This document shows positions 20,785 through 35,470 of a stretch of DNA of 64,000 bases, one piece after another; the first letter of the stretch is position 1; each line of letters starts with the position of its first letter. The position numbers and the translations under genes are program-made. The stretch spans positions 994,684 through 1,058,683 of the forward strand of contig NW_025766975.1 of NCBI RefSeq assembly GCF_003918875.1, in the 5' to 3' direction. The notes beneath the pieces were generated by a model. That model was given only the letters and a program-made list of their open reading frames with translations, did not search any database and had not been told where the DNA came from. The DNA is from Haliotis rubra. Taxonomy: Eukaryota.

Positions 20785-22880
20785 TAATTTTTGGAGTAAA
20801 ATTGATATTTTATACTTATCCTGACTCATGCTCTTTTTGCTTGTCTTCTTCTTCTTGCGAACATAGTGGAACACTTGTATCTCCCTAATTGAAGCTCCCT
20901 TCAATTTAAAATCACTAATTAGTATTCACCACGAGTTACCTCCTTTCCACAAGCGCGGGAACGAGGGCGCCACCTCTACCCATGTGCCTCACTCTCTCCT
21001 CATATACTGAGCCCAACATTTGAATTTACAGGAAATCCAAAGTGTTATTTGGGGAGGATGGGAGGGGCTGACCTCATGAGTCAGGATAAGTATAAAATAT
21101 CAATTTTACTCCAAAATTACATATTTTCCTTATCCTGACTCATGCTCTTGCTTGTAGCATCCTACGGACGGAGGTGGGAATATCTAATACTTTGGATTTT
21201 TAATAATTAGTGATTTGAACTGTGATGATTGTAATAACCCTATGGGAACTTCATAAAGGCACTGAACTGATGAATTCCTGCTGCTAACTTATCAGCTGCC
21301 ATATATGTTAAAAGGTTATTACCATGTACTTATTATGATAAAGTATATATAACATTAATACAATGCTTAAGACTAATAGACTTAAGCTTGTTAATATGCT
21401 AGTATAAACTCCTTAGAGTTTGTTAGCTAAAATACTTTAAGATATAACATAGTACTAAGCTTAAGATATGATTAAACTTAAGCTAATTATATAATAGCAA
21501 ACTCTTTAGAGTTTGTTAGCTAATCTACTTATATGATATAGATATAGTGCTGAGCTTAAGATATGAATAAGCTTTAGCTACCTATATATATAATAGCAAA
21601 ACTCTGTAGAGTTTGTTAGCTAATATATTTTTATAATATGAGTATAGTACTATGCTTAAGGTATAATTAGCTTAAGTTACCTATATAATAGTAAAACTCC
21701 GTAGAGTTTGTTAGCTTAATTAACTTAAGCTATGTATAAAATAGCCAAAAACTCTGTAGAGTTTGTTAGCTAATGCATTTATCATGTAACCATAGTATTA
21801 CTCTTAAGATATGAATAACTTAAGGTAAATATATATAATAACAAACTCTGTAGAGTTGTTAACTTATATATTGTATGATGTAATAATCATAGTACTGTGA
21901 TGATAAAAGGAACTTAAGTAAATTATATATAGCATGAAGCTATTTAGTATTGTTATAAGATAAGTAAAAATCTGTTAGATTGACTTATCTTCTAAGAGGA
22001 ACTGTCAGCTGTTGTGCGAGGACCATGGGATCGAATTGGTGTATACCTGAGACGTCCTCCTGGTGGTGATATCTCTCAGATAATGGTTTGCAACCACCAT
22101 ATCGATTTCCAGAAATAAACCCTCCATTATTTCAATCACATTTGTGTAGAACAATTGTAGAAGTTAGCGCTATAATATCATGAGTATTAAGCTCATGGAG
22201 GGTCGGAATAGGTCCATCCGCATATGCACGTAGTATGACAGTTCTGATCCAAATGGAGATATAGTACATGAGACTTCACTCTGCGTAAGTTGATGATAGA
22301 GGAAATAATCTGTTGCATTTTTCCTCCTGTTTGGTTTGGTGGAGATAAATTTACAGTGCTCTTGCTGGCCATCTTGATAGAATCATCGTGATCATGGGGT
22401 CCAAGTATGTCATCCAGGCGGTTGTTCATAAACCCGGATCAGCAGCAGCATAAAAACGCAATCTGTAATAGTACAGAATTTTCATCAACGAATCCACTGA
22501 AACAAACACGCGCCCCGTGAATAAACTGTAGAAAAAAACGAATTAAATATCAATATATAATCGCTTGAAGGATACTAGCTAAACCTCTATAGATGTCTAT
22601 ACGAGGTAACTAACTAAATATAATTCAAAGGATATAGTGTGTCGGAGACACAGGCGCTTCTCACGTCCAGCTCACTGGGCGAAGAAGGAGAGAGTGAGGC
22701 ACATGGGTAGAGGTGGCGCCCTCGTTCCCGCGCTTGTGGAAAGGAGGTAACTCGTGGTGAATACTAATTAGTGATTTTAAATTGAAGGGAGCTTCAATTA
22801 GGGAGATACAAGTGTTCCACTATGTTCGCAAGAAGAAGAAGACAAGCAAAAAGAGCATGAGTCAGGATAAGGAAAAATTA
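20785..22880. mobile_element. TE1: ~2.1-kb non-autonomous foldback-like DNA element with ~230-bp terminal inverted repeats
   Basis: 20812-21040 is the reverse complement of 22660-22880 (CTTATCCTGACTCATGCTCTTTTTGCTTGTC...GGCGCCACCTCTACCCATGTGCCTCACTCTCTCC); subterminal hairpin CATGAGTCAGGATAAG...CTTATCCTGACTCATG; internal ~60-bp tandem array 21340-21900; shared with TE2. Confidence 0.75.
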
Positions 22881-23084
22881 ACAGTATGTAGAGTAAAAAA
22901 CATGAGAATGATATCATTCCATATTCTGCAACACAAAATCATCAACAATCAGTGTTTTCAGTAGCAACTGAACCTCCAATGACAGATGTGGTGAGCAAGG
23001 ACCCACTACTGGAGAACAATGACACGCAATAGAGCGAGAAACTGAATGTTCAGTCACCTTGTATGACCAGAAATGTTTGATTTG

Positions 23085-23278
23085 CTTGTTTGTTGTTTAA
23101 CATTGCACTCAGCAATATTCCAGCTGTAAGGTGGATAATTAATAATCAGATCTGGACAAGACAATCCAGTGATCAACATCATGAGCATCGATCTAAGCAA
23201 TTGGGATACGATGACATATGCCAACCAAGTCAGCGAGTCTGATCACCATTCCTCGCCTCTTATGACAAGCATGGGTTG
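23085..23278 (-). mobile_element. SINE-B copy, directly abutted by a SINE-A
   Basis: SINE-B body ends at ...GACAAGCATGGGTTGA then SINE-A begins. Confidence 0.6.
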
Positions 23279-34700: not shown

Positions 34701-34963
34701 TGGAGGCGGCGGACTACGTCCCACGCCTCTCCACCATTCTAGCGGAAAACCAGACGGGAGGGGGGTCGACCAACAGCAGTAGACTGGCGAGGGGTTCAGG
34801 TGTATCAGTCATGCTAGACTCTGCATACGTGACCTATCTGCTGCGCGTCTCAAACGCAAAGTAATTATTTATTAAAGGTAGAATTGGATAAATTAGTATC
34901 GCAACTGCAACGTGAATCACATGAAACATGGCGCAGTACAGCTAGGGCATATTAAATGCGGAT
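31706..34963. mobile_element. nested insertion of unknown type inside TE2
   Basis: TE1 reads ...TTCATAAACC|CGGATCAGCAGC... contiguously; TE2 has 3.25 kb inserted at this point; contains a (TA)n and a cluster of about 12 CCTTCGCGAAGG-type palindromes (32930-34110); no TIR, poly-A or recognisable ORF. Confidence 0.5.
33054..33076. repeat. (TA)n microsatellite
   Basis: atatatatatatatatatatata. Confidence 0.9.
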
Positions 34964-35470
34964 CAGCAGCAGAATAAAAAACGTAATGTGCAACAGTACA
35001 GAATTTTTATCAACGTAATCCACTGCAACAGCACGGCGTCCCGTGCATAAACAGTAGAAACACGACTAAATATCAATATATAATTGTTGAAAGATACTAG
35101 CTAAACCTCTATAGATCTCTATACGAGGTAACTAACTAAATATAATCAAAGGATATAGTGTGTCGGGAGACACAGGCGCTCTCACGTCCAGCTCACTGGG
35201 CGAAGAAGGAGAGAGTGAGGCACATGGGTAGAGGTGGCGCCCTCGTTCCCGCGCTTGTGGAAGGGAGGTAACTCGTGGTGTACTAATTAGTGATTTTACA
35301 TTGAAGGGAACTTCAATTAGGGAGATACAAGTGTTCCACTATGTTCGCAAGAGGAAGGAGACAAGCAAAAGAGCATGAGTCAGGATAAGGAAAAATAATG
35401 ATCAAGATTTGTGTGAAGTGTCATCTTACTGACCAATTTTCAATTACAATACTTTTGACTTATGTGTTTT

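Follow-up and report, generated by a model that had tools for sequence, protein, structure and literature searches.

The window analysed here, a 64,000-nucleotide stretch of DNA from Haliotis rubra (contig NW_025766975.1), is eukaryotic and repeat-rich, with numerous minisatellites. It contains two related copies of a mobile element, which we call TE1 and TE2 (Table 1) and which lie in the same orientation. They are very probably two insertions of a non-autonomous lineage of DIRS1-like tyrosine-recombinase (YR) retrotransposon. This assignment is based on the arrangement of their inverted terminal repeats (ITRs), internal complementary region (ICR) and terminal extension, on the absence of a target-site duplication (TSD), on a YR remnant, and on homology to a complete DIRS1-like element found on a metagenome contig (L001). 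A preliminary description of the same DNA had presented them as two copies of a foldback-like element. The features that it listed all exist, close to where it had placed them and far beyond chance, but several of its numbers are corrected below.

Table 1. Positions in the window of TE1, TE2 and their parts, listed for each copy from left to right on the plus strand.
Feature	Positions	Strand	Details
TE1	20782-22878	-	Internally deleted copy, very probably DIRS1-like, 2,097 bp; ends set by ICR-to-terminus matches
TE1 3' (right) extension	20782-20814	-	33 nt; complementary to the ICR only, not to the opposite end
TE1 3' ITR	20815-21000	-	186 nt; 186/186 identical to the reverse complement of 22686-22871
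TE1 ICR	21075-21155	-	21075-21123 complementary to the 3' end; 21124-21155 to the 5' start
TE1 95-bp tandem array	21406-21931	-	~5.5 units; tandem-repeat search
TE1 YR C-terminal pseudogene fragment	21988-22380	-	Frameshifted; nonsense TAA at 22353-22351
TE1 5' ITR	22686-22871	-	186 nt; inverted-repeat search and gapped alignment
TE1 5' tip	22872-22878	-	Sense ATTTTTC, element start ATT; ICR match
TE2	29168-35396	-	Longer copy, very probably DIRS1-like, 6,229 bp; non-coding, without reverse transcriptase
TE2 3' (right) extension	29168-29200	-	33 nt; ICR match
TE2 3' ITR	29201-29383	-	183 nt; 182/183 identical to the reverse complement of 35207-35389
TE2 ICR	29456-29539	-	84 nt; 29456-29503 against the last 49 nt; 29503-29539 against the first 37 nt
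TE2 95-bp tandem array	29791-31145	-	14.2 units; two short hairpins per unit
TE2 YR C-terminal pseudogene fragment	31259-31769	-	~Residues 660-813 of P0001; TAA at 31631-31629
TE2 interior	31830-34900	-	33-51 stops per sense frame; no reverse transcriptase, RNase H or methyltransferase
TE2 putative gag N-terminal Cys motif remnant	34920-34973	-	DPHLICPSCTAPC against DPHSLCPDCVTPC in the gag of L001; weak
TE2 5' ITR	35207-35389	-	183 nt; inverted-repeat search and gapped alignment
TE2 5' tip	35390-35396	-	Sense ATTTTTC; ICR match

Termini and internal structure of the two copies

In both copies the true terminal repeat spans CTTATCC to CTCTCTCCT, and its sequence is CTTATCCTGACTCATGCTC…CTCTCTCCT. 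The repeats had been described as about 230 bp long and 90-95% identical. They are real inverted repeats, but gapped alignment gives lengths of 186 nt (TE1) and 183 nt (TE2), and identity is higher: ~97% between the two copies, and 186/186 and 182/183 positions between the two arms of the same copy. The ITRs consist of unique sequence: neither TRF repeats nor direct-repeat families occur within them, and the tandem arrays of the elements are internal and direct. The repeat search found no split direct repeats (of the A1-internal-B1-A2-B2 type seen in Ngaro/PAT-like elements), the terminal repeats being inverted. The element ends are asymmetric: beyond the repeat there are 33 nt at the left end on the plus strand and 7 nt at the right end.

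The most informative part of the structure is the one first described as a subterminal palindrome. It is present in both copies, with perfect inverted arms of 42 nt (20789-20830 and 21075-21116 in TE1; 29175-29216 and 29456-29497 in TE2), but it is bipartite, lies at one end of the element only, and differs from a simple hairpin. On the plus strand it begins with the reverse complement of the element's left end over 49 nt (the 33 nt outside the repeat plus 16 nt of the repeat tip), directly followed by a second part that is the reverse complement of the right end over 37 nt. The reverse complement of the whole thus reads as the right end followed by the left end, and so it equals the junction of a circularised element. 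The matches are exact over runs of 42 and 26 nt in TE1, where the other differences are changes in homopolymer length, and over runs of 42 and 37 nt in TE2. In each copy the structure is located ~72 nt upstream of the 3' ITR, its two halves and both ITRs have a 16-nt block in common (CATGAGTCAGGATAAG), and the point where the halves meet is AAAAT|ATG (sequence CAGGATAAGGAAAAATATGTAATTTTTGAG).

This arrangement defines ITR-type DIRS elements, in which the ICR is at the 3' end of the internal region and its two halves complement the terminal repeats, the 5' half matching where the 5' repeat starts and the 3' half where the 3' repeat ends (PMC8969392, PMC3266345). Such elements also have one trinucleotide, usually ATT, at each end, complementary to a 3-bp circular junction within the ICR. 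In the survey of metazoan DIRS1-like elements by Piednoel et al. (2011) the right extension was matched by the ICR only, a short block was shared by the ITRs and the ICR halves, and ATT was the commonest element start (PMC3266345). The 'subterminal palindrome' is therefore a DIRS1-type ICR, in which the circle junction is copied inside the element. From where the ICR lies, the sense strand of both copies is the minus strand of the window. Read in this sense from 5' to 3', an element consists of a 7-nt tip, the 5' ITR, a short leader, the putative start of gag and the interior, followed by the recombinase tail, the 95-bp array, a short unique stretch, the ICR, the 72-nt spacer, the 3' ITR and the 33-nt extension.

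The sequences flanking TE1 (TCCTTAAAA / TAACAGTAT) and TE2 (GCTAAGATA / AATGATCAA) have no similarity to each other, and TE2 is otherwise unmatched within the window. Because the flanks are unrelated, the copies are two insertions of one mobile family, as had been proposed, and a segmental duplication as their source is ruled out. At the candidate boundaries of these two insertions we found no TSD of any length, including 2-9 bp. That the preliminary description could not find one either is explained by the kind of element, which makes none. We also looked in the flanks for a 3-bp crossover overlap at the junction, and no single trinucleotide suits both copies.

These results bear on the class first suggested for TE1 and TE2, a non-autonomous foldback-like or P-, PIF- or hAT-type DNA transposon moved by cut-and-paste through its terminal inverted repeats. 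Long terminal inverted repeats, the lack of a transposase open reading frame (ORF) and AT-rich internal tandem repeats are all what such an element could have. It should nevertheless have left a TSD of 2-9 bp, and there is none; the inverted repeats lack sub-repeats; the two ends differ, only one of them having a 33-nt extension; and cut-and-paste transposition makes no use of an internal copy of the joined ends. With the YR remnant and the homology to an element encoding gag, reverse transcriptase (RT) and YR (below), we regard this class as extremely improbable and have replaced it by the DIRS1-like assignment.

Alignment of the two copies shows that TE1 is equivalent to TE2 without positions 31710-34952 and with a shorter tandem array, and that the deletion junction is at a TAAA(CC) microhomology. 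TE1 is thus derived from a TE2-like copy that lost 3.2 kb between two TAAA microhomologies and had its array shortened. This is reflected in the unique segment, which had been put at ~700 bp: that figure is about right for TE1 (~750 bp) but not for TE2 (~4 kb). The internal arrays are likewise real, but instead of about 9 and about 25 units of ~60 bp they contain ~5.5 units in TE1 and 14.2 in TE2, of 95 bp each. The 26-nt motif of the preliminary description occurs 5 times in TE1 and 11 times in TE2 (with ≤3 mismatches), when none is expected by chance. Folding of the 95-bp unit as sense RNA gives two short hairpins (z = -3.5). The array sits between the recombinase tail and the ICR, an interval of only 111 nt in L001, and we treat it as an expandable 3' cargo.

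Within the interior of TE2, a palindromic 10-mer (CTTCGCGAAG) has 14 copies with ≤1 mismatch at 32298-34100, compared with 0.43 expected in the whole window; the copies include a 12-bp tandem repeat at 33769-33837. This 3.1-kb interior could be decayed gag or non-coding cargo.

Coding remnants and relatives

There is no intact ORF in TE1 or TE2, which agrees with their initial description as non-autonomous and without a transposase ORF. By an exhaustive phmmer search with the longest open stretch (window:31226-31660:-, 145 aa) we found seven proteins, with E-values from 4.7e-8 to 8e-4, six of which align at their C-terminal end. We rejected one of the seven as a recombinase homolog (P0002, a lysozyme-repeat protein, which looks spurious). 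Among the six credible homologs, P0001 and P0003 have sub-threshold Pfam matches of the integrase type (Phage_integrase, Phage_int_SAM), P0007 matches RVT_1 above threshold and RT_RNaseH weakly, and the remaining three, all short fragments, have no Pfam match. The common ending of the homologs, HEIRALASTMALH…GCFW.S.TVF..HYLR…FGPLVVAQQ, aligns with LDIRALTSTISST…CRSDMVVANHYLRD…FDPMVLAQQ in TE2. We read it as the H-x-x-R and catalytic-tyrosine region of a tyrosine recombinase, and the TE2 fragment contains decayed versions of both motifs (LDIRALTST ... ANHYLRD).

In tblastn, the last 130-150 residues hit TE2 (31769-31259, minus strand) with an E-value of 2e-13, and residues 679-813 of P0001 hit TE1 (22380-21988, minus strand) with an E-value of 1.9e-13. 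A small YR profile reached 2.6e-18 in TE2 and 2.6e-9 in TE1, covering only the last third of the domain. Both copies read WPARAL*IYLH, and so have the same nonsense codon, at a position where intact relatives have lysine; besides this shared TAA, each copy has private frameshifts. The recombinase of TE1 and TE2 is thus present as a pseudogene remnant only and is not functional.

Other searches for coding sequence were negative. No Pfam match was obtained in six frames of the TE2 interior at E-values up to 1, and the reason for the lack of direct Pfam calls in TE2 is that there is too much decay and frameshifting. When the L001 pol was used as a tblastn query against the copies it gave nothing better than E = 0.25, and with all filters off the lowest E-value of a pol profile was 0.33, in the same test in which the recombinase control reached 2.6e-18. 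A word-indexed protein search with a stitched translation of 249 residues had no match, and a PDB sequence search with the 145-residue stretch had a chance match only (E = 0.64). Rfam and ARAGORN found nothing in the whole window.

The best phmmer match, P0001, is encoded on L001, a metagenome contig of 6.4 kb that contains a complete DIRS1-like element of 6.1 kb. Its ORFs are a gag (686 aa), a pol that matches RVT_1 (E = 2.5e-21) as well as RT_RNaseH, and a long overlapping YR ORF. Its termini have ITRs of 140 nt, a 3' extension, and an ICR of 33 + 55 nt located 69 nt upstream of the 3' ITR. The ITR tip of L001 (ATTTTAACTTATCCTG) is clearly related to that of TE1 and TE2 (ATTTTTCCTTATCCTG), with the core …CTTATCCTG…, and the AAAAT|ATG junction of the ICR is common to all three elements. 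The recombinase of the TE copies is ~32-36% identical to that of L001 over the surviving tail of 126-136 residues.

A second relative, on the metagenome contig that carries P0003 (L003), has a similar 3' extension and ICR. It comprises no more than the 3' part of a related element, with bacterial genes beside it (bacterial-type genes for thiolase and NlpC/P60 lie at 7552-10796 of that contig). L003 is probably a chimeric assembly, or else eukaryotic DNA that was binned with bacteria, and we used it solely for comparison of the 3' extension and ICR. A scan of metagenomes with the 19-nt ITR tip yielded no further copy; the five contigs that contain this tip have nothing else in common with TE2 and were discarded as chance matches.

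A tyrosine recombinase as the sole recognisable enzyme, in copies that lack RT, could also suggest a Crypton-like DNA transposon, which carries nothing but a recombinase and moves without an RNA intermediate. We consider this highly implausible. TE1 and TE2 have the full ITR, ICR and extension architecture, and TE2 has a putative gag-like N-terminal motif. Of the six credible homologs, moreover, the one on L001 sits with RT and RNase H, P0007 itself carries RT, and none is on a recombinase-only element.

Probable mobilisation of a defective lineage

DIRS1-like elements encode RT and RNase H, and in many cases a methyltransferase too. Since RT and RNase H were not detected, we file TE1 and TE2 as non-autonomous derivatives of DIRS1-like elements rather than as autonomous members. 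In the model for DIRS-1, replication restores one terminal repeat from its counterpart (PMC7192593), and the ITR arms of an element should therefore be identical at the start, as long terminal repeats (LTRs) are. The arms of TE1 and TE2 still agree at 186/186 and 182/183 positions, so there has been little change since insertion, and the interior of TE2 would already have been non-coding when it was inserted. The nonsense codon shared by the two copies, which are at different sites, likewise implies that the defect predates both insertions. We conclude that the lineage was probably defective before insertion and was mobilised in trans. The simplest reading is that enzymes provided in trans copied a defective lineage two or more times.

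These points also bear on the alternative that TE1 and TE2 are relics of once-autonomous DIRS1-like copies, which decayed in place and were never mobilised in trans. Both copies do contain coding remnants, and the difference between them is a simple microhomology deletion that could arise in place. Decay in place is nevertheless hard to reconcile with the short time since insertion indicated by the ITR pairs, with the 33-51 stops per frame and the absence of any RT trace in TE2 when the recombinase tail is still detected at E = 1e-18, and with the occurrence of the same nonsense codon at two sites. We consider this alternative unlikely, although less so than the two DNA-transposon classes.

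Several points weigh against the assignment of TE1 and TE2 to a trans-mobilised DIRS1-like lineage. We have only two copies, and their termini rest on the ICR match and not on a large set of insertion sites. According to the ICR, ATT should follow the element's 3' end, but the genome has TTT in the case of TE1 and TAT in the case of TE2; L001 also departs from its own ICR, with GTT where ATT is predicted, and this trinucleotide is probably derived from the target. Neither TE1 nor TE2 has a detectable RT, RNase H or methyltransferase, and retro-mobility is therefore inferred only from homology and architecture. The gag match is weak (18 residues, with tblastn E = 0.02, and phmmer E = 0.001 among 360 open stretches), and 3.1 kb of TE2 has no recognised origin. 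An autonomous partner with these ITRs was not found in the window, in public protein data or in metagenome data, and the highest identity at the protein level is 43% over 78 residues. The near-identical ITRs could in principle have been kept alike by gene conversion. Finally, a truncated DIRS-1 construct in Dictyostelium produced cDNA in trans, but a full cycle of trans-retrotransposition was not demonstrated (PMC7192593).

How the lineage could have moved can be outlined from the DIRS-1 model (the Cappello model, tested in PMC7192593); the ICR is essential in DIRS-1, and its RT can act in trans (PMC7192593). Transcription from the 5' ITR would produce an RNA that lacks the outermost ends. An autonomous partner at another place in the genome would provide, in trans, the RT that copies this RNA into single-stranded cDNA, and one ITR would be restored from its partner arm. 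The ICR would then pair with both cDNA ends and template the missing tips, yielding the circle junction …ATTACAT|ATTTTTCC…, and the circle would become double-stranded DNA. The tyrosine recombinase of the partner would insert the circle into the genome at its ATT junction, and the target would not be duplicated.

An extension of this proposal is that an RT-less lineage, which has kept only its cis-acting parts (the ITRs, ICR and leader) together with non-coding cargo, is mobilised in trans by autonomous DIRS1-like elements, so that DIRS machinery is spreading a 95-bp proto-satellite. We see the chances of this as evenly balanced. If it is true, a hairpin-rich 95-bp array whose copy number varies between insertions has been spread through a satellite-rich region of the genome. 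A variable array of this kind, carried by a mobile element, could plausibly give rise to satellite DNA. More generally, the near-identity of the ITRs, the shared nonsense codon and the absence of RT suggest that, in an animal genome, the enzymes of DIRS1-like elements are able to move defective relatives in trans. For annotation, the combination of long inverted repeats, a 'subterminal palindrome' and no TSD is a reason to check for a DIRS ICR before calling a foldback element or a miniature inverted-repeat transposable element (MITE).

Neighbouring repeats and comparison with known systems

The window as a whole is rich in satellites. The stretch at 14121-20511, which stops 270 bp short of TE1, is a very large minisatellite made of ~96 copies of a 66-bp unit, and its plus strand is strongly C-rich (GC skew of about -0.5). 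Other tandem arrays are located at 12607-13759 (77 bp x 15), 38606-39152 (151 bp x 3.6), 47283-49665 (31 bp x 78) and 51044-53265 (45 bp x 49, with higher-order periods of 90 and 135 bp). The 6.3 kb between TE1 and TE2 contain further short dispersed repeats (60-86% identity), at 23280-23408, 23624-23752, 24717-24845 and 26296-26424, and at 23141-23247 and 28852-28958.

There are two copies of a SINE-like element, at 24331-24545 (+) and 35480-35800 (-), which are ~97% identical in their common parts and have a tRNA-type B-box (GGTTCGATCCCCGACC) and a (CACCT)n tail; ARAGORN and Rfam found no tRNA in them. The second copy is 85 bp from the 5' end of TE2 and has an extra internal segment. Three ORFs were noted elsewhere in the window. 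One of 159 aa at 56878-57357 (+) matches the N-terminal DNA-binding domain of Tc1/mariner-type transposases (HTH_Tnp_Tc3_2, E = 2.6e-10) and probably represents a piece of a Tc1-like DNA transposon. The others have no Pfam match: one of 300 aa at 2860-3762 (-) resembles, by eye, the C-terminal region of a non-LTR (LINE) reverse transcriptase, and one of 324 aa at 41462-42436 (+) is mucin-like, being rich in Thr, Pro and Ser, with repeats of 15, 33 and 54 bp.

Among known systems, TE1 and TE2 resemble foldback elements and MITEs of the terminal-inverted-repeat type in their long inverted ends, lack of a transposase and AT-rich internal repeats. The inverted repeats of foldback elements, however, are built of tandem sub-repeats, and foldback elements make TSDs; TE1 and TE2 have neither ITR sub-repeats nor a TSD, and foldback elements are not known to have an internal copy of their joined ends. 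P and hAT elements produce TSDs of 8 bp and PIF elements a 3-bp TWA duplication, and their terminal inverted repeats have symmetric ends, in contrast to the asymmetric ends (33 versus 7 nt) and absent TSD of our copies. In Cryptons a tyrosine recombinase is the sole enzyme, with no ITR and ICR architecture and no gag or RT. To our knowledge, the combination of ITRs, ICR and extension is specific to DIRS1-like retroelements and has not been described for Cryptons.

The closest parallels are L001 and metazoan DIRS1-like elements, with which TE1 and TE2 share ITRs, a bipartite ICR, a right extension matched by the ICR only, an ATT start, the absence of a TSD and a spacer of ~70 nt. They differ in having no RT, RNase H, methyltransferase or intact ORF, in carrying a 0.5-1.35-kb array of 95-bp units that L001 does not have, and in their 3' flanking trinucleotide, which is TTT or TAT and not ATT. 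The kind of family is already known, and nothing about it would surprise a transposon specialist. In the founding member, DIRS-1 of Dictyostelium discoideum, an 88-nt ICR complements the left repeat over its first 33 nt and the right repeat over its last 55 nt (PMC7192593). TE2, whose 84-nt counterpart complements the first 37 and last 49 nt, follows the same logic at its termini, but the sequences are distant, and DIRS-1 is an autonomous element of 4.8 kb with three ORFs.

For a DIRS element without enzymes of its own, a precedent is TOC1 of Chlamydomonas, described as a non-autonomous DIRS retrotransposon (PMC9940879). Like TE1 and TE2 it is a DIRS-order element that lacks its own enzymes, and yet it changes in copy number; its host belongs to another kingdom, and the likeness drawn here is one of description. 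An RT-less lineage such as the one we propose would be comparable to the LARD or TRIM derivatives of LTR elements.

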